Part shown: positions 1,087 to 64,000 of the stretch, piece after piece
Layout: every line of letters begins with the position of its first letter
Numbering within the stretch: position 1 is the first letter of the stretch
Source: Lytechinus pictus
Lineage: Eukaryota
Assembly (NCBI RefSeq): GCF_037042905.1
Contig: NC_087251.1
Coordinates: forward strand, 3,598,001-3,662,000
Reading direction: 5' to 3'
DNA: 64,000 nt
Position numbers and translations under genes: made by a program
Notes under the pieces: generated by a model
Told to the model about the DNA's origin: nothing
The model's input: only the letters and a program-made list of their open reading frames with translations
The model's database searches: none

Positions 1087-4066
1087 TAGTAAACCTACTT
1101 CATGTGCAGGCCTACATGTGCAGGCCTACATGTACATGTTCGATAAAAATTAAGCAATTAGCTTGTTAGTAATATGGCAGGAAAAGTCAAACTGTTGAAC
1201 AGCCAATAAGCTTGTGATTTTATTGCATAGTTTTACATATATTTAGCCCAATAGATCAAATACTTGATAGTTCAAAGACAGAAATAGCAATTGCAAACTT
1301 TCTGAAAGGTTGATTATTGTTTCCTCACGAGGCAGGACATATTGAAAATGAGTCATTTTGACATGACCTCCAGTCAGGAAATAGTTCACTTCAGCCAGTC
1401 TGCAACACTGTGTAATCACACACCCTCTATACTCTCTTTTGTTCAGCTTAATATGATTTCATACTAATTAACCACTGAATTTGTAAACAATTAATCTAAT
1501 CCCGATCATGAAGAGAAGCTGTTGTTGTTTGTTTGTATGTACATGTATGCGCAATATTTACGCACACCTTCATTCTCTGCCCCAAATGTCAAAGGGAATG
1601 AAAAGAATTTAAGCACATTTATAAGAGGATTATATACAGTGATATGAATGAAATTTAAGAATAAGCTACACCAAAATTGTCTAATACATTATCAAAGAAT
1701 TTGTTTCATTTTGGTTTTCTAATTTAATGTGCAATACTGTATACATGGATGGTTATACACATTGACAATTTTGGGATTTAACAATAGTACATTGCAGCTG
1801 AATTATAGAGCAAAGAGAGATTTAGTGCTTAAAGTGGTAGCTTGTCTTATTGTAGAAATGGGCTATACTACATGTAGTTATAATTCAATTAATCATTTGT
1901 AACCAAAAACACCCAAACCACAGCGAAACCTCACATGCTTTATCCTTTAAAGTTACCTAAATTACATTTGAATCATATTGATATTGTCAGCGTTTTAGTA
2001 TTGATGGATTTCTATATTTATCAGCATATATATGTATGTCGTTTATGTGAAAAATATCATGTTTGAATATAAAGAGCCACCTAATACACAATGCGATATA
2101 CAGTATGGTTACCATGGCCAACAGAATACACATGTAGCTGTTATTGCTTTGGGGAAGAAAAACTGATAAAAAGTGACAGTTGCTATGGTGTTCACTGATG
2201 CTTTTAAAATATTTTAGATGGATCCTTTGTATTGACCAAAGCTTATAAAAGATGGTTATAAATTACCTGTTGGGTGCTCACCACGACATATTTGCATCCT
2301 TATTTCATATGAACCCTTGCTGTTGACGTATCATCTCCTGTGAATACAAAAGCTCAGATTGAAAGGCTTTTCAAATCAGGGTTTTCCAGGGCTCTATATA
2401 GATGCCTGGTAAATACATTTACCTGCATTGGCAGTGAGCTAGCAATTTTCTTGAGCTTTCTTATTAAGACGAGCGAGAAGCCTCCTCCTCTGCATTCATG
2501 CTCATGTCTGTTAAAGACCTTATTGGAAGCTGAAAAAAAAAACTTTGTACTATTGGGGACTGCAAATAATCTATATTACATGTTTATGGGGTGTTTTAAC
2601 GATGCATTTCATCCCTGGGTAAAACTTGACATCATCATCACCATCATTATTATCATCATCATCATCATCAAATAAAGTTTGTTTTGGACTGCATGATTTA
2701 CCTGTGAAATATATGTCTGAGAGTATATAGTGCAAAAGCAACACAATCTGACGAATATTCCATATATTATAACTAAGCCAAGTACAAAATTAGCTGTTTT
2801 AGGGTACTGTATTGCATGGTCAAATGCGCATATGCGCTAATATGCAAATCAGACATTGATGCAGGCAATGAGCACTGCAATGCAGTGCGCATACATGTAC
2901 AGTATATTATGTCATAATGAGCTACATATTTGTAAGTTGAAATTCTATATTAAATCAAAATTATTTTATGAAGTGGGGGCCATATTAACTTATTTTAATA
3001 AGAGACATGATGCTCTAAATATCTTTACTTTTTAGTAATAATTATATTGGATGGCTTTATTTCATAGAATATCAGTCATATTCCACATGTATTACATATC
3101 ATGCACTACATGTATTAGTAATAACTCTTGTAATATCTCTTGATACATGTACGTACGACAATACTCTACAAGAGGGATGTACTTTTAATGGAAGAATAGT
3201 ATTTGCTTTAGGAACACAAAATTTGTGAGCCTCGAAAAGGGGCTCTAATTTTAAGACGTCTTCTTATGTGGATGGAGATGTGATTACATGGAAAGTTAAT
3301 TTACATTGTTTTCCTGTTTTCCAGATTACAAATTTGGATATTTGAAATAGTTTGCATAGAAAAATATCATTGGCAATGTTTAGTGCTTAAATGGTCGGAA
3401 ACCTACTGCTCTAGACCATATTTTGTGTGATTTGTATAGTCAGCCTCTTATTTGGATATGGTTACTTTGCATGGCAAAACATATTACATACTTCTTCATG
3501 CAAATAAGACTTACATTGTGATAAGCTGCGCCAAATAAAGTGGCTAATTAATGAAAATTAGTCCAAAATGTGTAATAGAGTCCTGTTTCAATTTGAACAG
3601 GAAATACACTCAGTGTAATTATTGGTCCAAATTTTTCTCGAGTTTGTAATTGTAAAAAAATGAGAACTTACAGCTTTGAAATACGATGATGCCATGGGAT
3701 TCGAGTCAGTGATGAACGCAGCGTAACCCATATTTTAGGCTTACAAGTGTTTTTAAACAGAATACTACTACCAGCGCTGGTATGTGGTGAAAATGCAAGT
3801 AACTTGGAGTGTTGTATTCTACTGTCATGTCTTTTGAATTATAATAATTGCTGTTAAAAATCTGAAATGAAATGTTACCAAAATGACACTGAAATTTTGG
3901 ATTCTGACTCGACTAGATCTAGAATATGAATCATGATGCTTTATTCACATATGATGACAAAGTATATATTAGATTGCCTTCAAGTATTTCGTCTTTCCTG
4001 TGATGTAGAATTTCATTCCACATCAGATGAGAAATTAAAAAACTGTGAACTTATTTTCTTCTACAG

Positions 4067-16600: not shown

Positions 16601-19600
16601 CAACATTATTCACTTTGGGGATTGACCAAACATGCCTCTGGAAAGAAAATGGCTTATTGAGAAAAAAATGAACCTACTTTGTAACCTCCTATATTATACG
16701 TACATATATATGCACATAACTGCATTAGCACCTATTTTAGAATAGTAAAAAAGTACATCATGATTATTCCTATTTGTACAAGTTTGTTTGATTTTGCTCT
16801 AAGTGACCTTGTGCCAAAGTGAAACTTGTACTTTTATAACATGAATTTTTCCACATTTTTTTATCGGTTCAACCAAAATTTTGAGATATTTCAAGTAACA
16901 CTATTGTAGTTGGGAAAGTACTTTTTTCTGTTAACACACCCTCAAAATGGCCTTGTAATATTTCACATACAGTTTACCTCTGCTAAGTACATCATTTGTC
17001 ATCTGAAATATGAAAAAAGAAATACTGATGATTTCCCTTTAAGTTGTGATAGAGAACTCGTGAGCAGCCACCCAGTGAGAATAGACAGGAAATGCACAGG
17101 GAACATGTGGAGACTAGAAAATGTGAAGTCTCATTAAATCATTATATTGAATATGATTTATTTCAAAGATAAGTGCAGTAGACTCATGAGTGGGAGAGAA
17201 AGTGAGAGAGATGGGGGGGGGGCTCAAAGTTTAATAGGAGGAAAGATGAAATTGCTGTATGACTGGGACGAGATTGAAAAAGAGAAACTATTTAGGATAT
17301 TTATGTAGAGAATACATGCATTTATGTCATGACAATTGTCTTTAATTGTGAATTACAATGTAGAAGCATAAAATGTATTTTGTTGTATTCTCAGCATAAA
17401 CAATGAAGACAAAGCTTTGATAAAATATGTAGTGTATATTTCATCATTTTTTGCATACTGATATGCCTAACATGCTGGAGAAATTTGAGCTTTGACTTGA
17501 AACTATAGTTTGTATTGATGTTAGACTTGTTTTTTTTTTTCGATGACATTTTGTATTTTTCTATGAATATAAAAAAGTTTGTTTTCTAATTGTATTGTAT
17601 AGTCTCTTGGAGGAAACCCTCATTCCATGGTACAGAGGACAAAATCAGCCCCTAACCACCGACGTTCATCGCAACCAGCCCCGCCCACCTACTCACCACA
17701 ACATCCACCCTTAACCAGGGTAGAAACACCTCTTCACTCCCTGGGGGAACCAGACATCACAGATAGATTAGAGATGCTGTGTAGGAGTGTGACGGAGCAT
17801 GCATTAGGTCAGGATACAGTCCCCCTTCTAATTTTAGATTTACTGTAAGGAAGGCCTCATGCATATATGTGTTAATCTCATAATGTGACTGTGTCTGTCT
17901 GGGTTTGTCTTTGCCGCAGGCTTTGACTTTATTATTTTTTTCAGTCAGTTCATTCTAAAATATGCAAAATTTTATAGGTAACCCTGTTGGATACTGTTTA
18001 TATTTTGACTAACAGTTCATTCCATCTGGATTCACCCAGTGGTTGCACCCAACCCTCTCAGTTTTTGTTATAATTTGGTACACATAAAATTCTCCATGGC
18101 CCAAGCACAAAACAAAAAAAAATTAGTCCAATCGGTCAGTCGGTTCTCGCGCTACGGCCCGCCCTTTTCTCCTTGTTTTGACAAAAATGGGTGTGACCTT
18201 CAACTTTCAATGGCCATTGCGTCGTAACGTGTTGACCAATTTTCACGAAACTGGTACTATTCAAAAGGAAATTCAGAGAGGAATCCAAAACATGCATCAA
18301 ATAATGTATTGGAGCGATTTATAAGGTCATGACCTTTGACCTTGAGTTTGACCCCCGGACAAATAATTTTTGAACTTGATTTTCGTGTATGTTAATTATT
18401 AGGTTGATATTGACAAAATATGTTAAAACCAATGATGATATTTTATTCCTTCACCTTTTAAAACTCTTCCAAAGATACCAATTATCTGATCTGAAATTTC
18501 ACTCTAGTCCCATATACTGATAACCATGTTAGTAAAGTGTTTACCAGTCCCATGATATATGATTTCTTCCAATCTTAAGTTACAGTATGCAAACAGATGA
18601 AAAGAAATTAAGCTTATCAGTTGATAAATGAAACATTAAACATTTATGCTTATGAATACATGTAGGTACCTGTTTAGGCATTTTGATATTGGACGAATAT
18701 ATAAAAACTAAAAAACTGCTGGGAACTGCAATATCCTGCTTTCTAGTCAGCTGTACTCCCCCAAAGTGAAAACACCCTTGAGATCCTTGAAGCATCAGCA
18801 TTGGATATGTTCTTTATAATGATGATGCTAGAGATGGATGATCAATTGGACAGATAATATTGTATCTAGCTATCCAGCAGGTATCCTTTTCACTGCCTCC
18901 CCATTGAAAAAAGACAGTATCTAAATATTGCACAAGTTGAGATATTAAGCATTTTTTGTTTTTCCAAAGCTGCTCAAAACTATTTTATTTCTTAGTATTT
19001 TTTTATCATCAAATTGTTGAGTATATATGTTCCTATTTAAGGCTCCCAAAACAAATATCTTGTTTCTTTTTTTTTATAGATATTGAAGAGATGTACCGTA
19101 GATAGGCCTACTCTGGGAAAGTCAAAGCGAATGCTTGGTTTCTCCATGGAAAAACGCAGTACATGTATCTACAGATGGACCAGAATTCCATTCAGTTTTA
19201 TTATCACTTGCTTCATTACCATGAAATAATGTGTCATTGTGTATTTCAAGGGGAAAATAATACCTTAGATACACAGAGGGCCCCCTGATAACATTGAGTT
19301 TAATTATCATGTTCTTCATCTGTGGGTACTGCATTTTTCCATGGGAAACTGAGTATTTGCTTTTCTACATTTACACCAATATCTCAAAACATAACAACAC
19401 AATTTATATGGGGGGTTTTGGCCTGAAAAAGGCATTCTACATTTTGATGAAAAAGGAATAGAGAAATAAAATAGTATGGAGCGACTACATGTAGTAAAAA
19501 AAAAAAATGCTTAATATCTTATCTTGTGCAAAATGTAGAAACTGCATTTTGCCGATTACTTGAAAGTTGCTTTTCAGAAGCAATTAGGAAAACTGGATGT

Positions 19601-22600
19601 GTCTTGTGAAAAAAAGTGGCTTACTGACTACTTTCTGAAAAAATAAAAATTGAAAAAAAAAAGTCAGACACTGCGTTCTTCCATAGGGGTGCAGTGTAAA
19701 GATGGATAAATGTACCTGCTGGATAGTTAGAAACAATATTATCTCTCCAGTCGATCATCCATCTCTAACATCATCAAGAATGTATGATGCTTCAAGGATC
19801 TGAAGGATGTATCCACTTTGGGGGAGTACAGCTTACTAGAAAGCAGGATATTGCAGTTTTCTAATAATGAGTTGATATACACTACTCAAAAAAAGTTAAG
19901 GACCACTTTTTAAAACGTACATAAAGATTTTATACAAGGTGTTTTATTTCTGGAAATACCTCAGTACAACTGTCCTAAATGTCCTTAAACACGCTGTAAT
20001 CAATTTCACGCATGGGTGGTTTCAGTTGTTGCACAATGTCTCTCGCATCACTGCACATCCTGAAAAGTGGGCCCCGAGGGGTATCAGCTACCGACATGAA
20101 GTGGTAAAAACGAATGTCTGAGTGTCTTTCAGGCAGTTCAGTAACGAGTGTAACGAGTGTGACCACCTCCTGCAGCAATAACGGCTTCACAGCGCTGTCT
20201 CATGGAGCTGATGAGGCGATTGATGTCTCTGACGTCCAGTGCATCCCATGCAGCCTCCAGAGCCACACCCAGCTGCTGCAGTCCAAGTGGATGGGCTTCG
20301 AGCTGCTCGAGACTCCTCCCCATCATGTCCCAGACGTGCTCTATCGGGTTTAAGTCCGGGGACCTCGCTGGCCACTCCATACGCTCAATCCCCTGGCCCT
20401 CAAGGAACTCGGTCACCACCCTAGCTCGGTGGGCACGGGCATTGTCATCCATGAAAATGATGTTTTGTCCCACATTTTCTGCAAATGGCACCACTATAGG
20501 TTCAAGGACCTCATCCCTGTACCTCACTCCTGTCATTGCTCCCCCTGGGACCACGTAGAGACGAGTACGGTTGGCGTAGGTGATGCCTCCCCACACCATG
20601 ACGCTGCCTCCCCCATAACGGTCATGTTCTGCAATACAGGGGTCTGCAAATCTCTCTCCTGGTTGCCTCCAGACTCTCGAACGTCCATCATTGTGGTCAA
20701 GGGAAAATCTGCTCTCATCTGTGAACAGAACTCTACGCCATTGCTGTCTGGTCCATCTGACATGCTCCCGGGCCCAGTTGAGACGAATTCTTCTGTGAGC
20801 AGGGGTGAGTGGGACACACTGAGCTGGCCGTCTGGCATGCATATTGGCTCTGTGAAGTCGGTTACGGATTGTTTGAGTGGAAACAATCACTCCAGTTGCT
20901 GCAGCGAAGTCATTGTTGAGGCGGCGTGCACTGTGAAAGCGGTTGCGGAGGCTGAGATTCGTCAAGTAGCGATCATCTCTAGGGGTTGTCGAAACTGGTC
21001 GGCCACTGCGGGGTCTCTCGGAGTATAGCCCTGTCTCTCGGTGTCTTTGATTTGCTCTGCTAATGACACTGTGTGACACGCCCATCATTCTGGCTACTCT
21101 TCGCTGACTGAGGCCAGCTCCAGCATCCCTAGGGCTCTGGCTACATCTGTTTCACCCGAATATGGCTGTCTTGAATCTCCTCAAACACCCTGTAACAATT
21201 TCACACATGGGTGGTTTCAGTTGTTGCATGATGTCTCTCGCATTATTGCATATCCTGAAAAGTGGGCCCATTGTGAAGTGGTACAAATGTGGATTCAAAT
21301 GCATTTTCTGTCTTTAGTCTCTACAATCAACAAATTGCTGACAACAGCAATGCCAAGATACAGCTGTCCAGAATGCCATCAAACACAATGACATCAATTT
21401 CACACATGCAGTTCTTTCATGATGTCTCTGGCATCATTGCAGTGGGCCATAAGACAAGTGTCTTCCAAAGCATTTTCCGTCTTAAGTCTGTACAATCAAC
21501 AACTTGCCTACAACAGCAATGCCAAGACACCACCTAAGTGAAACAGATGTAGCCAGAGCCCTAGGGATGCTGGAAGCTGGCCTCAGTCAGCGAAGAGTAG
21601 CCAGAATGATGGGCGTGTCACACAGTGTCATTAGCAGAGCAAATCAAAGACACCGAGAGACAGGGCTATACTCCGAGAGACCCCGCAGTGGCCGACCAGT
21701 TTCGACAACCCCTAGAGATGATCGCTACTTGACGAATCTCAGCCTCCGCAACCGCTTTCACAGTGCACGCCGCCTCAACAATGACTTCGCTGCAGCAACT
21801 GGAGTGATTGTTTCCACTCAAACAATCCGTAACCGACTTCACAGAGCCAATATGCATGCCAGACGGCCAGCTCAGTGTGTCCCACTCACCCCTGCTCACA
21901 GAAGAATTCGTCTCAACTGGGCCCGGGAGCATGTCAGATGGACCAGACAGCAATGGCGTAGAGTTCTGTTCACAGATGAGAGCAGATTTTCCCTTGACCA
22001 CAATGATGGACGTTCGAGAGTCTGGAGGCGACCAGGAGAGAGATTTGCAGACCCCTGTATTGCAGAACATGACCGTTATGGGGGAGGCAGCGTCATGGTG
22101 TGGGGAGGCATCACCTACGCCAACCGTACTCGTCTCTACGTGGTCCCAGGGGGAGCAATGACAGGAGTGAGGTACAGGGATGAGGTCCTTGAACCTATAG
22201 TGGTGCCATTTGCAGAAAATGTGGGACAAAACATCATTTTCATGGATGACAATGCCCGTGCCCACCGAGCTAGGGTGGTGACCGAGTTCCTTGAGGGCCA
22301 GGGGATTGAGCGTATGGAGTGGCCAGCGAGGTCCCCGGACTTAAACCCGATAGAGCACGTCTGGGACATGATGGGGAGGAGTCTCGAGCAGCTCGAAGCC
22401 CATCCACTTGGACTGCAGCAGCTGGGTGTGGCTCTGGAGGCTGCATGGGATGCACTGGACGTCAGAGACATCAATCGCCTCATCAGCTCCATGAGACAGC
22501 GCTGTGAAGCCGTTATTGCTGCAGGAGGTGGTCACACTCGTTACACTCGTTACTGAACTGCCTGAAAGACACTCAGACATTCGTTTTTACCACTTCATGT

Positions 22601-24299
22601 CGGTAGCTGATACCCCTCGGGGCCCACTTTTCAGGATGTGCAGTGATGCGAGAGACATTGTGCAACAACTGAAACCACCCATGCGTGAAATTGATTACAG
22701 CGTGTTTAAGGACATTTAGGACAGTTGTACTGAGGTATTTCCAGAAATAAAACACCTTGTATAAAATCTTTATGTACGTTTTAAAAAGTGGTCCTTAACT
22801 TTTTTTGAGTAGTGTATATTGCCCAACATCAAAATGCCAAAACAGATACCTATTCATGAGCATAAATGTTCAATGTTTCATTTGTTAACCGATGAGCTTA
22901 ATTTCTTAACATCTGTTTGCATACTGTAACTTAAGATTGGAAGAAATCATGTATCATTGGACTGGTAAACACTTTACTAACATGAATATCAGTATTTGGG
23001 ACTAAAGTGAAATTTCAGATCAGATAATTGGTATTTTTGGAAGAGTTTTAAAAGGTGAAGGAATAAAATATCATCATTGGTTTTAACATATTTTGTCAAT
23101 ATCATACTAATAATTAACATACACGAAAATCAAGTTAAAAAATTATTTGTCCGGGGGTCAAACTCAAGGTCAAAGTAAAGGTCAAAGGTCATGACCTTAT
23201 AAATTGCCCCAATACATTATTTGATGCTTGTTTTGGATTCCTCTCTGATTTTCCTTATGAATGGTACCAGTTTCGTGAAAATTGGTCAACAAGTTACGAC
23301 GCAATGGCCATTGAAAGTTGAAGGTCATGCCCATTTTTGTCAAAACAAGGAGAAAAGGGCAGGCCGTAGCGCGAGAACCGATGGACCGATTGGACTAATT
23401 TTTTTGTTTTGTGCTTGGGCCATGGGGAATTTTATGTGTACCAAATTACAACAAATTCTGAGAGGGTCGGTGCAAAATTGCACATTCATTGGGTGAATTG
23501 GCATGGAATGACCCTAACATAGAATGCTACTATTTTTGGCATATTCCAATCAACTATCATTAAATATGTCTGTTTTAATACTGTGTAAATATTATTCAGT
23601 TTCTAATTATATATTGCTTGAAATGTTCCTCATTGAGTAGTACCTGTTGATATAAAACAATTTATTTCTTTGAGATGAAGAAATGTGTTTTAGAGAAATT
23701 CTTGGACCTTTTTAAAACAAAATGAATAAATACATATTCTTGTGTGATTCAGAGAAATGATAAAATTAAAAAAATTTGTATATTTTCACAATGTGAAACT
23801 GATGCATATTTCATTTAATTCATTATATATGTATTTATATTTTATTTAAAATATGTATGTTGTGAAAAGGTATGATTGCCTCAATATTCAGTCTTTACTT
23901 TTCAAGATACTGATATTTTCCAAATCCAATTCCCTCTTTTTCAGAAGAAACTGTACCACTTGGAGAAGAAATCGATGTCTGAAAAAGTATAGATGAATAT
24001 CAATGATTTAGCATTTGGGGTGATTTGTTCATGTTTATTGATAATAAGTTCATGCTCTTTGGGACTAAATAAAGACTGCTTCATATCCGCCACTAAAAGG
24101 TTAAGGGAAATTGAATAAATCATCATCAGAGAATAAGAGGCATAATGTTCTTGTGATCACTTGGCTCTCTGAAAGCATTTACATGGATGTGCAACATTCA
24201 TCAATTCCATGTTATTTCATTGTCATTTTTCATTCTTTCACATTCTTGATCTTTTGTACAGATGAAGCAGATCACAATGGAGAAATATCAAGACATTGA
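4067..24299 (+). CDS. SAMD4: Smaug homolog (SAMD4A/B family; SAM + PHAT RNA-binding translational repressor), 5'-partial. join(4067-4630,5260-5319,6487-6596,7136-7222,8233-8488,12927-13128,14778-14982,17603-17807,24262-24299)
   Basis: All introns are GT-AG and the frame is continuous (1727 nt, phase-1 start). Motifs match SAMD4/Smaug: [104 protein letters not shown]. The first coding exon was not found in the window. Confidence 0.95.
4657..4802. mobile_element. Small GC-rich palindromic MITE-like element with internal subrepeats
   Basis: CACCTTCCCGCACAAAGGCCGTT is inverted against AACGGCCTTTGTGCAGGAAAGCG; two forward and two reverse subunits. Confidence 0.7.
5260..5319 (+). CDS. SAMD4: Smaug exon ([12 protein letters not shown])
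   Basis: tttcag|AAG...AAAG|gtgagc; 60 bp, in frame. Confidence 0.9.
6487..6596 (+). CDS. SAMD4: Smaug exon, SAM domain first half
   Basis: [41 protein letters not shown] bounded. Confidence 0.97.
6625..6836. repeat. Degenerate (ATC/GAT)n microsatellite
   Basis: Runs of GAT and CAT triplets. Confidence 0.85.
7136..7222 (+). CDS. SAMD4: Smaug exon, SAM domain second half
   Basis: [33 protein letters not shown] bounded. Confidence 0.97.
8233..8488 (+). CDS. SAMD4: Smaug exon (PHAT region start)
   Basis: DIMSTG...[13 protein letters not shown]; ctacag| ... |gtaagt. Confidence 0.93.
9989..10194. mobile_element. Degenerate MITE with internal telomere-like TAACCC units
   Basis: Imperfect inverted ends (GGTTCCATGACATCTGTTCTGGCGACAATT / AATTATCACAGGAGCAAAGGTTGTGTCACC); internal CTAACCCTAACCCT. 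Confidence 0.5.
10415..10697. mobile_element. MITE, imperfect TIRs
   Basis: AACCCATATTCTAAAGTTGGGTTTAA is inverted against TTAAATCCGAATTTAGAATACAGGTC. Confidence 0.55.
12927..13128 (+). CDS. SAMD4: Smaug exon (PHAT region)
   Basis: [46 protein letters not shown] bounded. Confidence 0.95.
14430..14700 (+). repeat. Dispersed non-autonomous DNA-transposon fragment (same family as 46833-47035)
   Basis: Both sites share GGTCAAGTCCACC...TTTGAAT.AATAG...AAAATCA.ACAA...CTGAAAATTT. Confidence 0.6.
14778..14982 (+). CDS. SAMD4: Smaug exon (low-complexity S/G/P/Q region)
   Basis: ttacag|G TGG AGT...CAG|gtgagt; phases match both neighbours. Confidence 0.85.
17603..17807 (+). CDS. SAMD4: Smaug exon (conserved C-terminal motif)
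   Basis: VQRTKSAP...[18 protein letters not shown]. Confidence 0.92.
20138..21155 (-). pseudogene. Inverted, 5'-truncated, frameshifted copy of the Tc1 transposase
   Basis: Matches the + copy except loss of the first ~6 codons, a 1-bp deletion near 21120 and one R->Q change. A 316-aa ORF from an internal Met remains. Confidence 0.9.
21519..22556 (+). CDS. Tc1 transposase, DD34E, 345 aa, apparently intact
   Basis: N-terminal HTH, RSGRP linker, [38 protein letters not shown]; 34 residues between D and E. Confidence 0.97.
   Translation: MPRHHLSETDVARALGMLEAGLSQRRVARMMGVSHSVISRANQRHRETGLYSERPRSGRPVSTTPRDDRYLTNLSLRNRFHSARRLNNDFAAATGVIVSTQTIRNRLHRANMHARRPAQCVPLTPAHRRIRLNWAREHVRWTRQQWRRVLFTDESRFSLDHNDGRSRVWRRPGERFADPCIAEHDRYGGGSVMVWGGITYANRTRLYVVPGGAMTGVRYRDEVLEPIVVPFAENVGQNIIFMDDNARAHRARVVTEFLEGQGIERMEWPARSPDLNPIEHVWDMMGRSLEQLEAHPLGLQQLGVALEAAWDALDVRDINRLISSMRQRCEAVIAAGGGHTRYTRY
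24262..24299 (+). CDS. SAMD4: Probable terminal Smaug coding exon ([12 protein letters not shown])
   Basis: Pyrimidine tract + tacag acceptor; phase matches GCA TTA G|gtcagg. Vertebrate SAMD4 also has a short tail after EHAL. Confidence 0.7.
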
Positions 24300-34846: not shown

Positions 34847-35272
34847 TCATCTAAATCCAAACAATTCATTCAACCTCTCATTCATATTCCATAGTCTGGT
34901 TTTCCAGTCATTTCCTCTATCATCTAAATCTGATGAACGTTCATCCCCATCATTATCCGTGTTTCCGGTCCCGTCGAGTCTAAAATGGCTACTGATAACT
35001 CCTCTACACATTGGGCAGGCATTGAGGATTTCCAAGCACATCTGACACACGCACGCATGCCGACAGGGTATGATGACCCGTGTGATAGAAGCATTCTGGC
35101 AAACAATACAGTTCCTACTGACATCACCAAAGCTATCTCTACTCGTAGAATCTGATGAAGATACATGTTCACTAAATAGTATGCTATGATTATCATCACC
35201 CAAAGATGGTTCCTCGTCAACACTCACTCTTTCGTTGTGAAAGCTGGTCTCATCTGCAGCCATGTACATTTT
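34847..35272 (-). CDS. CGRRF1: CGRRF1 last exon, RING finger
   Basis: C3HC4-type RING; acceptor tgtag|AAA ATG. Confidence 0.93.
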   Translation of the reverse strand, partial: KMYMAADETSFHNERVSVDEEPSLGDDNHSILFSEHVSSSDSTSRDSFGDVSRNCIVCQNASITRVIIPCRHACVCQMCLEILNACPMCRGVISSHFRLDGTGNTDNDGDERSSDLDDRGNDWKTRLWNMNERLNELFGFR

Positions 35273-50046: not shown

Positions 50047-50493
50047 CAGTAGAGGCGCACGGCCAATATGGGAGACTCTCTCCAATAGGGGAGACAATCT
50101 CCCACATTGGAGACTTGCTTTGCAAAAGGACAAAAGAAACAACACCAACAAAAGCATGATTTTTTCCACCCAAAATTTTGTCTCACTGAGGTCAGAAGCC
50201 CATTTGTTTTGTGTGTGATTGACAACAAAAATCCTTATCAAAACAAAAGTAGATGGTGAATTTTTAAAGTAGACGGTGAAAAGGGGTAATTTTTCATGAG
50301 GAATCTGCTTATCACATTTTTATTTGCCGCCAAGGTAATCCTTTTGCAGCAAATGTAAACAAAGGAAATTGGTATCCAAAACTGGAGACTGTCTCTGAAA
50401 TTGGATACCCAAATTCTTTACAAAAGTCTCTGATATTGGAGATAATCTCCCACATTGGAGACAGTCTCCAATATTGGCCGTGCGCCTCTACTG
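50047..50493. mobile_element. 447-bp MITE with 5-bp target duplication
   Basis: ACAAC|CAGTAGAGGCGCACGGCCAATAT ... ATATTGGCCGTGCGCCTCTACTG|ACAAC; subterminal TCTCCCACATTGGAGA repeats. Confidence 0.9.
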
Positions 50494-51506: not shown

Positions 51507-52857
51507 ACTGTCAGATTAACGCTGAATTTTAATTCATTTACAAAAATAAATCAAAAGATCTGATGTTATATGGGATCTTTAGATGTCTGGGTATAACGTG
51601 AATTAATTTTTGTTTATAAAAAGTGAACAATTAGGAAGCAAACGACTTGCGAAAACTCAAAACTATTTCCATCGTCGTGAGCTAAAAATGGTGGCTATAA
51701 AGCCTATATTACTTGATGTAAATCTCCATCTGCTACCATTTGAGACCTCGTATATTCAATTCACGCCAGACTTTCGGGCGAGAGTTTCTCTGAAATTTCG
51801 ATTCCTACCGAAGATCTCAGCAGGCATGAAAAGAACTAGAATCTAGATAACGTTTAGGCTAGACATATTGAGTTTAGAAAGACATTCACTCCATTAACCC
51901 GTCCCTTTGAATTCACATATCAAGACAATACTAGGACCGTAGCCTCTAGAGTAGATCTAGAGTCTAGTCCACGATCATTTTGTAAAAAAAGATGTTTTTC
52001 CCAAACTTATTTCTACTAATAATACGGTACCGGTACTAGGCCTAGGCCTACACTAAAGTTAGTTCTTATGTTTCCTTTTATTTTTTTAAACTTGAAAGTT
52101 GGGCCTACCGCCTTGATCTAGATCTAGACCAAGTCTAAGTTAATCTAACTTAGAGTTAGACGTAGGGCCTACCCCGGGGTCTGAACGTCGCCACTTCGGA
52201 CAGCCTCGGACTCGGCAACATAGATCTAGACTAGAGGGGAGTAGAGATCAAGTCTAAGTTGGGCCTAATTCATCGGTAGATCTGATTACAGGTCTTGGCT
52301 AAAGCTAAAAGAAAACATTTCTACCTCCCAGCCTATCTAGCTTAGGTCTAACTTGTTATAGACCTAGACTAGACTTGGATCTAGGCCTACAAGTACAACA
52401 AAGTCAAAGCGACCTGTAGAATATATATAGGCCTAGGCTTAGTATTATTTCAGTCAGGGTCTTAAGTTAAGGCCAAAGGGTTTATTTAATTTTGGAGGTT
52501 AGCTTTTGTTTGGCCTAACGTGCAGATTTTCCATCGGAGCACTTGTCATCAGAGCAAATGTCATGAAACTATTTTAAAGACACTAGGTCAAGACAGCTTT
52601 AGTCTAGATCTATCACTTGTATGATTCAATAACATTGAAAGTTCGCAGAATAGTAGGTTTAACAAATATGAAATTTAGATCTACTTTTGATGTAGGCCTA
52701 GATCTAGATCTACTTACATTTAGTTCCAGATCTATGTACGTCAGAGTCTATGACTAGATCTAGATTATACGCTATAGTCCAAGTGTTATGTTTTTTTGTT
52801 TTTTTACAATAGCTTGTATTGCTAACATTTCTGTCTGTGTATTGTTTTAATCAACAG

Positions 52858-52948: not shown

Positions 52949-54656
52949 GTAAAAAAAAACAATAATCATCCTATATTATATATCAAACTGAATGACTTCA
53001 TGTATTTACATACCAAACGACTTTATCCAAGAATGATTCCAGATGTCAATGATTTCATAATCCTACAATGGTTATATTAAAACCCATTTCAAATTTCAAT
53101 ACCCATGTTCAATAATTTACAAGATAATTGTTTAGTAAATTCTTTTTAGTGTCAATACACAAATTAATTTCTTTGAAATTTTGCTAACTCATAGATTTTG
53201 ACATCATTGGCATCTGGAGTCATTAATTTTAGCCATGCCTTATTTCGGTGCAAATCAAAATCTACATCTCTGCAAAGAATACATACTGACTATCCAACCA
53301 TGAATATGATATCAAATTATTTGGGAGAATATACTCTTTCTAGTGGTATAATATGCGTTCATGACATATTTTTACCTTAAATTGGGGCTTTGTGAGGTGT
53401 CCCTTTTTTTTTGGGGGGGGGGGGGGGGGGGCTCACACGGTAGACCAAGATCTAAGTTTTATTGAGTAAATGAAAAGAAAATCAGCTCAGAGACTAGGCT
53501 GGAGTCGTTTTGACAGGCTCCATTTTCATTTTCACCTGTCATATTTTCACGGGACAATTAATATCACCTACCGGTAGATCTAGCTTGTCAAATTTAAATA
53601 AGAAAATCAGAATATACTATACTATAGGCTAAGCAAGTGGAAAGTCATTTGTAATCAATTTATTTGCTTCCTACCCACTCATGAATTCCTCAATCCACAC
53701 CAGATTTTGTAAAGGCGACTCATTCGGCTTGTGATTTCATTAAGCTTTTATATATTTTTTTATTTCTTTTTATTTTGATGATGGCTTGATTGAATTGCTA
53801 ACATTTCTGTCTTTTTGTGTGTGTTTTTTTTCAACAGACATGGAACATGACTCTGCTTCACATCCTTTGTTTTAGAGACTCAAGAAATACAAGACCAAAT
53901 TAAGGGTTTGTTTTTTTAATTCCAATAATAATTTTCTGGTGGAAGAATTAGGGAATAATGCATTGACAATATGCCAAACATCCTATATCAAACTGAATTA
54001 CTGCATGTATTTACAATAGAGTATTGTAACCGTTTCCCCCTCACCACTGACCAAACAAAACCCACAAACAATTTAAGAGGGATAGGGTTATTTTAGGGGT
54101 AATTATCCTTGCTGATTGTAGCAGTAGTTTTTACAAATATGGATGTAGTTAATGATGATGTTTATGATAATAATACTTAGAATAATAAATTCATTACGAT
54201 GACATAACAGTAATGATGAATAAATATGATAATTCAGCACTATAATATGTACATGAAATTGTGTAACAATTTTGGCAATAAAGAATTTTAAACAAAAATA
54301 ATGATCAATGAATTCGGGGGGGGGGGGGGCATGTGACATTTTATCTGTGTTTGTGAGGACAGTAGTCTCTTTCACACCATTTCATCTTAAGCAGATGGGA
54401 ACGAGCTCTGATCAAAATTTGATCTTTAAACTCAAGAGGAAAATAATTGTTACCTGATTTATGTATTTGGAATAAAATGAATTGAAATAATAATTTTGTC
54501 ATTGTCACTGAATTAACAAGTCTTCTATAATTCTTTTAGCTGAGAGTTTAGGTGAATCAAGATATTTGAGGAGACACTGAAAGTACTAGTAGAATTAATG
54601 GACGAGCAATAGTGAACAAGCAGCATAAATTTAAGAGTAATGAGACCTACATTTTG

Positions 54657-54871: not shown

Positions 54872-56770
54872 TTATGTAGATGTGATAGAGAATTTCTAAA
54901 TATATATTTTTTTTTAATGAGAAAGATACATGGGTGATTTCAAGTTTGCTGTTGAACTTTTGGTGTGGCGTCTTACAAGTTTTACATCATCATCACAGCA
55001 CCAAAATTACAATCAAATTGATTCATAGATTCATCTCACTTGATGTTGAGCTATTAATGTGATTTGGATTATTTTTGTAAACTCACATTAGGTTTTGGAG
55101 GAAGGAAGAACTAAATTGTGCTACGAACACCAACGCCAAAGTTAGAATCACCCAGTGTATTTTATTTTTTTTAATGAATTGCGAGAAGAGCTGAGAGGTG
55201 GAAAATATAAGAGAAAGAGTTGTGTGTGTGGTTTAATAATGAGAGTGCGATATGGCAAAGAGAGAGCTGAAGAGAGATTAAAAGAATAGATAATGTATTA
55301 CAATGATAATGTGAAGGGGCATAGGGTGCACAAGAGAGTGGACAGAGCCAATTGACAATTTACCCACAAGGAGAAACCATAAAGGGCCATTTTATTCTTT
55401 ATTTATTTTGAGAGGAGGCGGGGATAAATGAGGGAGAAACAATTTATAAAGAGTGGGGAAGAGGAATAAGATGAATAGAGATGACTTTTAAAGACAAAAA
55501 TTAGGCCAATCAGAGTGTGTGTGTGGGGGGGGGGGGGGCAAAGCCGATCAGTGCGCCCCCCCCCAATTTGACAGGCTCAATTAAAAATTGTAATGTAAAG
55601 TGTGTCCCCCTTCTGAAAGTGAAGACCCCCCTTTTTTTGCTTTTCAAATTTTTCCTTGAGAAAATGTGCCCGGCCCCTTTGGAAAAATCCTAGATCCGCC
55701 CTGCCTGAAACTGATGAAGTTTGGTAATGACATGTCACTTATCTGTGCTCTTAAAAAGAGTGAACACAAAGAAATTAGATTACCCCCCCCCCCTGCAAAA
55801 AAGAATTAAATGATCATTATCAATAATTGGAAAGGCTTAGCGTAAAAAACACACTATTAATTAATTACAGAAAATAAATAGGTTCTAATTAAATCCAATC
55901 CTATTTTCTAAAGAAATTTTGGATTCAGAATTTGTTTTTACTATATCATTAATAACATACACTGCGATGTGAAACATGCCTCTAGTGATTCTGATCTGGA
56001 GAACAGCAGAGAAAGGTCGTATTTTTTTTAAATGAAAGAACCAAATTACAAAACCAGTAAGTGAAACGTTCAAACTGAAATACATTGTTATTATTTATAT
56101 TGGCGTATTGTTATTGTGAAATAAACTAGTTCGTAAATATCTTCCCCTTTCATTTACACCAATGTTAAAAAGAAACAGGCTGATTCACCCCCCCCCCCCC
56201 CCCCCCCCCCCCCATCTCCAGGTTAAACAAGATTAAGAAAAGTGTCAGGCTGCGGTGCTAGTGTACGTTGTTGCATGTAAACTGCATTCTATGCACGGAA
56301 GTTGAAAAACGATGCATGCATGATGACTCATTGTAGTGAAGAACGCTGATTGGTCAATAGTAGTAAGAAGTAGATTAATCACGTGATGAATATATTAAAT
56401 TTCATGAATAATTAACGCAAAGTTGACCTCGCTCAATGCGCATGCGTGACGCTGATCTCCACTTTCTGCTTCGTCATATAAAGAGTCTATTGGGATGTGT
56501 GGAGCAGCGAACTGATGAATTATTCATGTATATGCAAATGGGGGCTTAGGATTTGCCCAAATGTCGCCAACAAAATGGCGGAGCTTCGGGGGCCTGTTTT
56601 ACACCATGGCGAAGGCATTTTCCGCAAAAATAGCCACAAAGCGACTAGTGAAGAGTCTACACACGTCGCTGGTTGCAGCTTGCGACACAGGCGAGCCCCG
56701 CATGCAATCTGCACAGTTACTGATAGAGCCTGGAGCATGAAGCTATCATAGAGTTCCTCGGCACTTCATG

Positions 56771-59910
<3,140 letters not shown>

Positions 59911-62142
59911 ATATAACTATCAAAATACAATCACATGCAGTCAAAGACTGAAATAAGTGAATGTTTACATACAAATAGAATCATAACAAAATATAAAGTA
60001 AACATTATAAATAAATATCAAATACAATACAAATTCATACAGATAAAAAAGAAATGTATCATAAATAAATACAAAAGGCCAAAAGTAAAGTGTCACCAAA
60101 GAAGAAAAATGCGGAATGAAAGATTAAGAAGAAAGAGGTGAGAGAAGGGAAAGAAATTGGGATAAGACAAAGAGAAGGGAAAGCAAGAGGTGGAATTTGA
60201 AAGAGAATAGGAGGCAACCTTCAGAAGAAAAAAAACTAATTATGCCTTACAAGACATTTAACAATGGTAACAAGTAAATAAAGTAGTAATTGAATCGAAT
60301 CGAGCACAAAAAAGGGAAAGTAGAGCTGAGGAAATAGACTCCCGAAGGAAGTCGAAGCAGTGTTGATATTGCACATTAGTAGATTAACAGATGGATAGAG
60401 AGAAATAAAAGAGAGACAGATGGATAGATAGACAATTTGAGAGATAGATGTTAGATGGATAGATAGATAGACAGATAGATAGGTAGATAGAGAATGAGAG
60501 AGACAGAGTAGATAGACAAATTAACAGATAGATATATCATGTAGTACCATATATTGATTTATAACATAGATAGTGCATGGATAGACAGATATGATAGATA
60601 TAAGGATAGATATAAAATGAAAAAAAGTAATTATGTGTTTTATTTTTCAATATTTTAGCTATTATTCGTTTTCATTCATATAAACGATCATGTGCGATAA
60701 AGTAAAAAAAATCATGAAGCCAACGTATATAGTTCAGCGGAACAACCAAAATACAGAGACTGAAGATTTTGGTCTATAAGCTCAGCTGCATTTGCACGTA
60801 TGTTCTGCGGATATCTTCGGTGCGGACTTTATCGCGCCCAGCTGATTATGTAAACAAACGTAGACGTAGACTCTTCACTAGTCGCTTTGTGGCTATTTTT
60901 CCGGAAAATGCCTTCGCCAGGGTGTAAAACGGAAACGCGCGGCCCGCGCGCTGGAAGAGCAGTCTTATGATTGAAGTAGCTACCCTGGGTAAATAAAACG
61001 TTATTATTATTCTCCATTTTTTAGGTCTATGCACGATAACTACATCTCTGAACAGCCTCTTCCTCATGTGTTTTTTTCTCTCTCTCTCTTGATCATAAAA
61101 TGAACAAAGATGTAGAACTTTCTCAAACTTATCAATAAGTATACACCCCCTCCCCTTCCTCGGCAGCTAGCTTCCACTGGCACACACGCCCTCACATACA
61201 CGTTCATCACACATCTCTATTATTCAACCTCAATATTTCAGCTCTTGAACAATACTTCAAATAGAAGCATCATTTAAATTTTCATACAATTTCATCTTGT
61301 CTGAATATTCCTTCTACGTATAATTAAATTTCCCACAAAAGACATGTGCAAATAGTGCAATATTTCATTCTTGGATGTACATTAGACACGATTGGGTATG
61401 AGGATTTGGGTTGATTTTTTATTTTTTTTTTATTTGAGTATCAAGATAACTGGTAAGAAATTACATACAGTTTGTATACTACGGAACACAAATAATGAGA
61501 AAAACACGATGATAAAATATAACATAGTTGAAAATTATTTTTTATTATACCCGAAGTTTAATTAAAATTGTATCCTTCAATAGAAATAAAGTTACAAATG
61601 TGAAAAAAAATAACTGAATTTGAAACCAAACAAACTTGCTTAAAATACAAAACTCTATAGTTTTTAATAATTTCATTTTAACGTACCTATTTATGTAAAA
61701 CAAAACAATTTCAAACCATATTGGGAGCATATGCCCCTGAATCCTAAAAGATATATGAATACAATCGTTTCCTAAATTGTTTTTATTTACCAAACAATTT
61801 TTCTATGCAAAAAGAAACAAACGAAGTATAATTCCCTGTTGTACTAAACTAACTCGTGGACAACCTTCCTTAAAATGTTACAGTAGTACTGGGTCTAAAT
61901 ATCAGCCAAAGAATTTTAAACTTTTCAATATTAGCCAATATGAATCAACGTTAATACTTATATGCTTAATTTGCACTTTTGTCAAATTTTAAACGTCGAA
62001 GTCACCTTATAGAAAACTAAAATTATCGATGAACAGTCATAATCATTATAGGCCAAGTACATGATCAAAATATAGTAGGTTACGTATGATAAAAAAATAC
62101 ATTTACTATGATAGAGCGTTTATTTATTAAAAAACATGTTAC

Positions 62143-62250: not shown

Positions 62251-63495
62251 CTGTAGTATAATTAAGAAAATTAATAGAATATGATGGCAACATCATATTT
62301 TCCTACATCGCATTCTTGAATTCTTTTACAACTTATAATCAATTATATTCAATCATGCATTAATATTTCAAACACTCATAATTTTTTGGTATTATTATAT
62401 GGAATATAATATATATAATATTTCTAATTTTTCAGTTTTGACAAGAAAGAAGCTCTTTGGGTCCCAATTAATAGCAACTCTACATGATCAGGGAGGAATG
62501 AAACTTTGCTTAAAAGTAAAATGAAGATGAGAATAAAAGTTTCATAAACTTAATACAATAAAACACAATTTAACAGTGAGCGGGTGACATCATCGTTTCC
62601 CCCATTTCCATACTGGCCATGCAGATTTCATAAGATCATTATCTTTTTGCGTTATATATATTTCTTTTATTTTTATCCATGTAGGCCTATAAAATAAAAT
62701 TTTATGGAATGGACTAATTTTTTCAATAGTTTTATGTAAGTGAATGATATAAATCAATAATCATGATCAAACAAAGCCACAGACAAAAAACACAAATATT
62801 TCTTTGTTAAATTTTATATAGGTCTACACTGACACGAAAATGAATGTTTTAAACACAATTGATATCCTGTATATAAAATCCAAAATCATGAAAAGGATAC
62901 GCATGTCAGTAAATTAATTTTGGGAGCTCAAAGCGCAAGCTGATTTATTGGGAGATAAACAATTATTGTTGTTGTTGTTTGGTTATTTTACAGCGCTCTC
63001 GTTAAAAAGAAGAATACTTTTTTATATAAGCCAATCAAATTTATTTTTTTATCTCACTACAATGTTGTTGCTTTTTCATTAAATAAGGCCTTATGAGAAA
63101 TTTCGCATGTGAACGCCTCATCGCCAATAGGCAAAATCTTGCCTAGCTCTTCATGCACATCGAGTCAGACGTAAGAACTAGCTGGGCATTTTCCACAGTT
63201 TTTTGTGATCTAATTATAAAGTTAATGCGGTCGCGACGTGCGAGCATTTTTTACCTGAAAAGTAACATTTTAAGCATTTTTGGACATTTATAGGAACATT
63301 TTTATTCGGATACGTTTGTCAGTAGATAACCAACCGAAGTACATAATATTTTGGGGCATGGCCTGATTTATCCCCCACCCTTTAATTTTTATTTTATTTT
63401 ATTTATCAATATTTTTAGGGATGGCTTCTCAACACCCCCCCCCCCCCCCCTTCCCCGGTCTTACGCCCATGTATATGTATCTGCACATAACCTAC

Positions 63496-63835
63496 CTTGA
63501 TTAGGCGGCGTATATTCTTCATGTATAGGACAAGATTGCTCTTGGTAAGTGTCTTCGTATTTCTTCATTGTAAAATATAGATGAGTCGAACCCTCCATCT
63601 TCTTAAGGCACTCCATAAATGATCCATAGGCTTTATCCCCTCTCGTCGGTATGATATCCAGAAGGGCTGATACTTTATCTCTTCTGGTTGTTTCAGCTTT
63701 GACTTTTGCAGCATCATGTGAAGTGATTATCATATCTGCTAGAAGGTGTGGCACTATATCATCTGCATCCAAATCGTTCAGAAGATCAGGAGTAACCTGA
63801 AGAAGAATCTCACGATGTTTCGTTGTCATAGACAT
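63496..63835 (-). CDS. CARD (death-fold) domain protein, first coding exon
   Basis: MSMTTKHREILLQVTPDLLNDLDADDIVPHLLADMIITSHD...RRDKVSALLDIIPTRGDKAYGSFMECLKK has the CARD pattern; acceptor tttttcag at 63840; donor G|gtaggt. Confidence 0.85.
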
Positions 63836-64000
63836 GTTGCTGAAAAAAATATTTTGGTAGAAATTGATGCCGAAAAACAAATTCAGGTATTGTCATGAAT
63901 AGTGAGTTACGGTTTTAAATAGAAATATCATAGGATGGAAAAATAGAGATTTAAAAAAGAGCAGAGCTCAGAATATAGGACTTCACACAGAGAGTACACA

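Follow-up and report, generated by a model that had tools for sequence, protein, structure and literature searches.

Tc1 excision generates non-complementary 3′ overhangs of 2 nt (PMC4490562, accessible text). The octamer TACATGTA is a documented class among Tc1 footprints (PMC4490562 Supplementary Data 3 and PMC3520976), which bears out its recognition as such in an earlier note on this DNA that was made from the letters alone. The share of TACATGTA (class L) among germline Tc1 revertants of worms, counted on in-frame products only, was 24/103 in repair-proficient animals, 10/36 in lig-4 worms, and 3/39 in polq-1 worms (PMC4490562 Supplementary Data 3); on the last value we discarded the idea that it is the dominant polq-1 class. 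The available part of PMC3520976, with reference to Eide and Anderson 1988, calls the same word a rare Tc1 footprint in worms. The excerpt of bioRxiv 10.1101/659086 gives TACATA and TATGTA as the commonest Tc3 footprints and TACAGTA or TACTGTA as those left by Sleeping Beauty (SB), and the eight SB footprints of its abstract do not include TACATGTA. The target consensus sequences are ANNTANNT for SB, CAYATATRTG for Tc1, and CTAG for IS630, according to the accessible parts of PMC8934666 and PMC2577343. In Phytophthora, TACATGTA is an abundant promoter motif (motif-1), and the word is also named as the preferred Irx homeodomain site; motif discovery has read it as a transcription-factor site, and in the available text of PMC3520976 an origin as a footprint was weighed and set aside, without indel evidence. 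In the open-access literature, a partial coverage from which subscription journals are mostly missing, we found no treatment of these words as a genome-scale class of scars in animals.

The octamer described here has the same eight letters as the C. elegans Tc1 footprint and the same net gain of 6 bp at TA. In both, the letters are those of a duplicated TA and of the 2-nt overhangs at the two ends of an element that runs from CA to TG, the worm product having been observed in the germline. The two cases differ in that TACATGTA is one class of many in worms, called rare in the accessible source, whereas in the present DNA few 8-mers are more over-represented, and in that excision was tracked in worms, whereas our case is deduced from existing sequence in which TACATA and TATGTA show no clear excess. 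The Tc3 and SB footprints also combine the TA duplication with terminal bases of the element, but they keep the letters of one end and add 4 or 5 bp (bioRxiv 10.1101/659086, excerpt). The Phytophthora motif is the same word and is likewise very abundant in non-coding DNA (PMC3520976, available text). Templated insertions by polymerase theta likewise place a few letters at a break and are primed by minimal homology, but they copy variable flanking letters (PMC4490562, accessible text); here the insert is one fixed word that is absent from the immediate flanks of site 1. We propose, with a probability of roughly 65%, that cut-and-paste transposons of the IS630/Tc1/mariner type, which target TA, left the octamers as scars when they excised in the germline. 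The TACATGTA footprint itself is known, and what is new here is its unusual density, the presence of sister words, and their stacking.

We counted words in the window, which is the whole stretch of 64,000 nucleotides and consists of animal DNA with introns, and calculated the expected counts from an order-3 Markov model of the window with tandem arrays masked. TACATGTA occurred 17 times against 2.9 expected (p about 1e-8), and the earlier impression that it is conspicuously frequent was correct. After homopolymers, the most over-represented 8-mers were TAGGCCTA (13 vs 0.66), TAGATCTA (10 vs 0.7), and TACATGTA itself, followed by TTCTAATT (16 vs 2.9) and TACCGGTA (6 vs 0.22), and four of these five are palindromes of the form TA-xy-y′x′-TA. 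The 16 palindromic TA-xxxx-TA words together reached 74 copies against 29.7 expected, and the 240 non-palindromic words 443 against 372. Stacks on shared TAs were found 4 times among 49 sites, where about 0.5 was expected. An A adjoining the TA was avoided in the flanks of TACATGTA (3/34 vs 10.7 expected) and of the sister words (1/26 and 1/20), and a T at +3 of TACATGTA was present in 15/34 flanks against 11.7, which was not significant. The usual shorter footprints TACATA and TATGTA were not clearly in excess in the window (73 vs 62.7, p=0.1), and this is the chief weakness of the scar reading. In the same window, the 3-nt products of the local Tc1 ends (TACACTA/TAGTGTA) numbered 9 against 7.7, and the SB footprints TACAGTA and TACTGTA were at most weakly raised (14 vs 9.4).

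Several stretches rich in related words were observed apart from these counts. The region 51800-52800 holds dense CTAG, GATC, and GGCC words with stacked TA-bounded palindromes in an apparent first intron beside CpG-rich DNA, and G adjoins the TA in 13/20 flanks of TAGATCTA, an IS630-like CTAG context. Of the 16 ATACCG/CGGTAT hexamers in the window, 12 fall in a stretch of 150 bp at 930-1080 and are probably subterminal repeats of a small element. Three of the six copies of TACCGGTA (958, 1027, and 1063) lie in this stretch and were rejected as scars, being probably subrepeats of the element. At 1101-1140, a 14-bp tandem repeat of CATGTGCAGGCCTA (2.4 copies) runs into TACATGTACATGT and resembles stacked or slipped units. 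Homopolymers of G and of C also show a strong over-representation.

Table 1. Coordinates of the features discussed, numbered from the first letter of the window.
Feature	Position	Strand	Remarks
TACATGTA cluster	1127..3151		6 of the window's 17 copies
Host foldback element	18013..23514		TAA flanking each side
Left arm of host element	~18013-19250
Right arm of host element	~19251-19879 and 22817-23514		split by Tc1
Site 1, TACATGTA, left arm	18657..18664		clean 6-bp gap relative to right arm
Empty TA, right arm	22851..22852		counterpart of site 1
Site 2, TACATGTA, inner left arm	19160..19167		gap placement and direction ambiguous
TA, inner right arm	19327..19328		counterpart of site 2
Site 3, TACATGTA adjoining an A run	19486..19493		counterpart ~18963-18972, left arm
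Site 4, TACATTTA, right arm	19707..19714	-	clean 6-bp gap; one change from TACATGTA; missed by the earlier note
Empty TA, left arm	18882..18883		counterpart of site 4
Tc1-family element	19880..22814		ends CAC...GTG; interrupts the right arm of the host element
Inverted, 5′-truncated copy of the transposase gene	20138..21151	-
Intact Tc1 transposase, 345 aa	21519..22556	+	DD34E: D153, D244, E279, spacer 34
Sister-word cluster	51952..52762		8/10 TAGATCTA, 5/13 TAGGCCTA, 1 TACCGGTA; stacks 52037-52050 and 52693-52712
Stack of TACCGGTA and TAGATCTA	53569..53582		on one common TA

The Tc1 element nested in the foldback element is flanked by TA at 19878-19879 and 22815-22816 (target ATA-TA-TAT), and its first 61 bases are the reverse complement of its last 61. 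The DDE_3 and HTH_Tnp_Tc3_2 domains of its transposase score above the cut-off. The ends CAC...GTG with TA on both sides confirm the previous description of local Tc1 ends as CA...TG, and the CA and TG of TACATGTA are the terminal bases of this element, a match that is not specific to it. The element is possibly the source of the scars; by their letters, any TA-targeting element with CA...TG ends, or with CAT...ATG ends and a 3-nt cut, would fit them. The flanks of the scars (GAA/GGT, CAG/TCT, and GAC/GTA) differ from the ATA-TA-TAT site of the local Tc1. The element is also a near-perfect palindrome (1275/1277 columns identical) with two head-to-head copies of the transposase gene, in which both outer ends correspond to one terminus and a 382-bp centre contains decayed copies of subterminal repeats; this could be a genuine foldback rearrangement or an assembly artefact.

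The outer 670 bp of the host foldback element belong to a high-copy family, and the inner part is low-copy in the run contigs; the summed depth over the outer arm was mostly 1e4 to 3e5 in the sequencing runs X1, X2, and X6. Contigs that join 18658 to 19858/19873 suggest that copies of the foldback element lacking Tc1 exist. Searches for other copies of the host arm gave no match in metagenome contigs and none in viral contigs. The right end is of the GGG...CCC type with TAA on both sides, which we take to resemble PIF/Harbinger or Zator-type elements.

We aligned the two arms, each serving as the reference for the other, and obtained 1006 matching columns, 122 differing columns, and 23 gaps from 18050 to 19180. 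Five of the 23 gaps were 6 bp long, and three of these five read TA to TACAT(G/T)TA. None of the three exact copies of TACATGTA in the arms was shared by both arms. The best alignment of site 1 removes TACATG, ACATGT, or CATGTA, which are equivalent, with 2 distant mismatches in 26; the pairing of GAA-TACATGTA-GGTA with GAA-TA-GGTA given in the earlier note is thus a clean gap between TA and TACATGTA, with correct coordinates and letters. CATG is absent from the immediate flanks of site 1, and the added letters are therefore not the product of a local duplication or a hairpin. At site 4, GG-TACATTTA-TC on the minus strand aligns with GG-TA-TC without any flanking mismatch in 16. The duplicated target TA lies on both sides of the added letters cleanly at sites 1 and 4, and a duplication is possible at site 2 at the cost of one extra mismatch. 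The indel reported previously at site 2 does exist, but it aligns best as a gap of ATGTAT, with 3 mismatches in 24, whereas a TA-bounded gap costs 4. Site 3 does contain TACATGTA, but the net gap is 5 bp with 7 mismatches in 32, and the case is blurred and not clean. We accordingly restate the former count of three events within ~850 bp as one clean site, one decayed extra site, one ambiguous site, and one blurred site. If existing octamers were lost by random 6-bp deletion (a rough null), two or more of the five gaps would be of this kind with a probability of 7.5e-6, which rises to 7.4e-4 if TA microhomology is granted a tenfold boost. We also compared ten further paralogous pairs within the window and counted 17 gaps, of which one was 6 bp long and none was a TA-bounded gap of this class. 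A copy of TAGGCCTA at 19103 was rejected as an insertion, since contigs span these letters and their absence from the opposite arm looks like a loss.

To polarise the gaps, Logan contigs from 4 of 18 sequencing runs (X1, X2, X6, and X11) were aligned to 18000-19880 at 80% likeness. Among the indels listed, a six-letter gap at 18656 was carried by a single contig in X2 (depth 687 of 5066) and by a single contig in X6 (depth 2833 of 20718), and this gap was absent from X1 and X11. Three X6 contigs stop at 18658 and then run on with short-form letters, and three joints begin at 18658. The long form of site 1 was found only in low-depth pieces, and 3/5 long pieces across the site, at depths of 13.6 to 47, leave out fewer than 6 letters and so retain it, which speaks against insertion. 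The gap is missing from about 86% of the depth at 18656 in X2 and X6 and from the whole depth in X1 and X11, and in this remainder clipped short forms cannot be told from true long forms. Because family contigs of high depth have the short form in 2/4 runs, site 1 is probably an insertion common to a few alleles or copies. We did not use as evidence of polarity that the right arm has the family letter at 15/19 positions, since these rows by construction differ from the left arm.

At site 2, the long form is certainly retained by 2/7 pieces that span 19160, and 3/4 long contigs across the counterpart at 19327 carry 6 or more extra letters somewhere along their length; because of these extra letters, a loss of six bases from the short arm is possible. 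The short counterpart has at most 2 extra letters in 4/7 pieces for site 3 and in 4/9 pieces for site 4, and 2/2 pieces at site 4 itself lose fewer than 6 letters; at sites 3 and 4, both arm forms are thus old and shared. The proposed comparison of indels between repeat copies leans toward insertion at site 1, where high-depth family contigs carry the short form, but is ambiguous at site 2. The earlier idea of a scar of repeated insertion and excision is strengthened by the known footprint class, by the low probability of such gaps under random deletion, and by the short form at site 1, but not by site 2, the direction of which is ambiguous. TACATGTA was also found in one X1 contig, in a TA run homologous to the Tc1 site of the window, and the same run in an X6 contig of depth 335 consists of plain TA repeats. 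This contrast is the nearest approach to a pair of filled and scarred sites, although the two positions lie one TA apart and belong to different copies; no filled, empty, and scarred trio of one locus was seen in the arm contigs of the 4 runs.

The scars would arise in the following steps. Insertion duplicates TA, which is shown for the local Tc1 and would hold for the other donors as is established for the family. Staggered excision would then leave the first bases of the element as 3′ overhangs on both flanks, as is established for Tc1, and repair that keeps the letters of both ends would give TA-CA-TG-TA with a net gain of 6 bp, as shown in worms. Two 2-nt CA overhangs may be joined end to end to give TACATGTA, as in worms; alternatively, two 3-nt CAT overhangs may anneal through their self-complementary last two bases to give the same word. 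We lean slightly toward end-to-end joining. The annealing of 3-nt overhangs would account for the fact that only palindromic words stand out and that TAGGCTA and TAGCCTA accompany TAGGCCTA in other hosts, but TACATTA and TAATGTA are not raised (23 vs 19.4 and 58 vs 60.6). The local Tc1 suits only end-to-end joining, because its ends are CAC. Each scar would hold two fresh TAs, on which later visits could stack further scars, as the observed stacks suggest. TAGGCCTA and TAGATCTA would be scars of the same type from families with GG...CC and GA...TC ends. No TA-flanked elements with GG, GA, or CC ends were confirmed in the window or the other-host loci scanned. Tc2/pogo-like and some mariner elements begin with CC, Minos leaves a 6-bp footprint, and none of the tested TA-flanked families known to us ends in GG or GA.

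We searched metagenome contigs with a stacked 18-mer to examine the same words in other hosts and obtained at least 119 loci; after removal of 7 near-identical overlaps and masking of the match, 112 loci (265,639 bp) were analysed. TACATGTA (67 vs 8.4) and TAGGCCTA (84 vs 4.4) were both raised in these loci, with counts that are biased by the selection with the 18-mer. The unselected cores CCGG (15 vs 2.2, in 9 loci), CTAG (14 vs 3.3, in 10 loci), and GATC (20 vs 2.8, in 8 loci, with 13/20 from locus L056) were also raised, AGCT reached 8 against 2.7, and TATA 82 against 11.2 (simple repeats). The cores ACGT, CGCG, GCGC, GTAC, and TGCA were not raised in the 112 loci. TAGGCTA and TAGCCTA, the products expected of GGC...GCC ends and a 3-nt cut, numbered 90 against 26.4, and TACATA and TATGTA 211 against 183 (p=0.02), a ratio equal to the class median of 1.1. 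A T at +3 of TACATGTA, a position conserved in SB targets, was present in 63/134 flanks against 40.1 expected, and a T at +1, which is part of the Tc1 consensus, was depleted (28 vs 40.2). Homologous stretches gave 111 indel rows, and the 11 rows of 6 bp represent 5 or 6 events, one of which changes TA to TACATGTA (L035/L047). The arm pair of L039 differs by a 12-bp double unit, which is the selected match. In L017, TAGGCCTA lies within a 9-bp insertion missing from 2 other copies; this is the sole polarised TAGGCCTA indel and is not 6 bp. Long TAGATCTA stacks occur with TACATGTA at 1700-2100 of L056, L015 also has long stacks at 1440-1475, and L068 contains 15 copies of TACATGTA in 8.2 kb.

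Transposases could be dispensed with if breaks at TA were patched from a nearby TA-bounded word, by templated insertion in the style of polymerase theta with the 2-bp TA match both starting and sealing the copy, or if units of 6 bp slipped, so that palindromes would spread locally. We consider such self-copying unlikely. Adjacent pairs within 1 kb are indeed more frequent than expected for TACATGTA (8 vs 4.1), TAGGCCTA (6 vs 2.4), and TAGATCTA (8 vs 1.5), GA is repeated in 9/20 flanks of TAGATCTA where 1.1 is expected, templated inserts are common at worm breaks (PMC4490562, accessible text), and no donor elements for GGCC or GATC were found in the window or the other-host loci. However, non-palindromic TA-xxxx-TA words should spread by the same route and are only slightly raised, and other hosts share the same small set of leading cores. 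Moreover, the flanks of TACATGTA are not repetitive (5/34, p=0.11), and those of TAGATCTA in the other-host loci repeat GA in 5/40, which is not strong. Less likely again is that the long form is ancestral and that slippage from one TA to the other, or an ordinary deletion, removed six bases from the short arm, although for site 2 taken alone this has a substantial, if minority, chance. The non-TA-bounded best gap at site 2, the contigs that keep the long form or extra letters there, and the absence of 26 bp near 19363 from the inner right arm of the window copy favour deletion. Against it are the improbability of two or more such gaps under the deletion null, the high depth of the short form at site 1, and the few extra letters at the counterparts of sites 3 and 4; the sixfold enrichment of TACATGTA would also be left unexplained.

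That the words are transcription-factor sites retained or built by selection is very improbable. The description of TACATGTA as an Irx site and a Phytophthora promoter motif (PMC3520976, available text) and the clustering of sister words in the apparent first intron beside CpG-rich DNA agree with selection, but the words arrive as whole 6-bp indels inside transposon arms and not as point changes, and selection could retain scars but does not create them. An origin of TACATGTA as the double CpG-deamination product of TACGCGTA is scarcely credible: TACGCGTA has no copies in the window, its single-step forms together have 2, and the other double products, TATGCATA, TATGTGTA, and TACACATA, have 4, 4, and 2 copies against 17 of TACATGTA. 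Before thinning, TACATGTA tended toward CpG-poor bins, which speaks for CpG decay. A division of the words by CpG level seemed significant at first (p=0.001) but disappeared when each cluster of sites was given a single count (9 vs 9 sites, p=0.43), and we rejected it as unproven. A broader and rather doubtful proposal is that the TA-bounded palindromes with the cores CATG, GGCC, GATC, CCGG, and CTAG are the output of one germline process in several marine eukaryote lineages and not passive scars from many families. This process would insert six-base TA-bounded units at TAs with earlier units as target or template; the words would thereby propagate on their own, pile up as 6-bp microsatellites, and go on making sites of the homeodomain type.

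If the excision-scar reading is correct, the word count reads out transposon traffic that has vanished, with about 14 excess scars in 59 kb, which far outnumber the transposon copies still visible. Germline repair would then mostly retain both overhangs here, compared with the mixed outcomes in worms, and a fixed 6-bp insertion would be a major class of indel for alignment, population genetics, and motif discovery.

Other features of the window were as follows. A small inverted-repeat element at 50047-50493 has ends that read CAG...CTG and what looks like a duplication of 5 bp, ACAAC. A frame of 351 aa at 42952-44007 matches a GIY-YIG endonuclease and lies among TGACCTTTGACC-type repeats; it is likely the end of a Penelope-type retroelement. 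About 4.5 kb at 56180-60700 consist of GATA and AG microsatellites with internal higher-order duplications, and the host exons at 34847-35272 and 63461-63892, both on the minus strand, encode a RING finger and a CARD domain.
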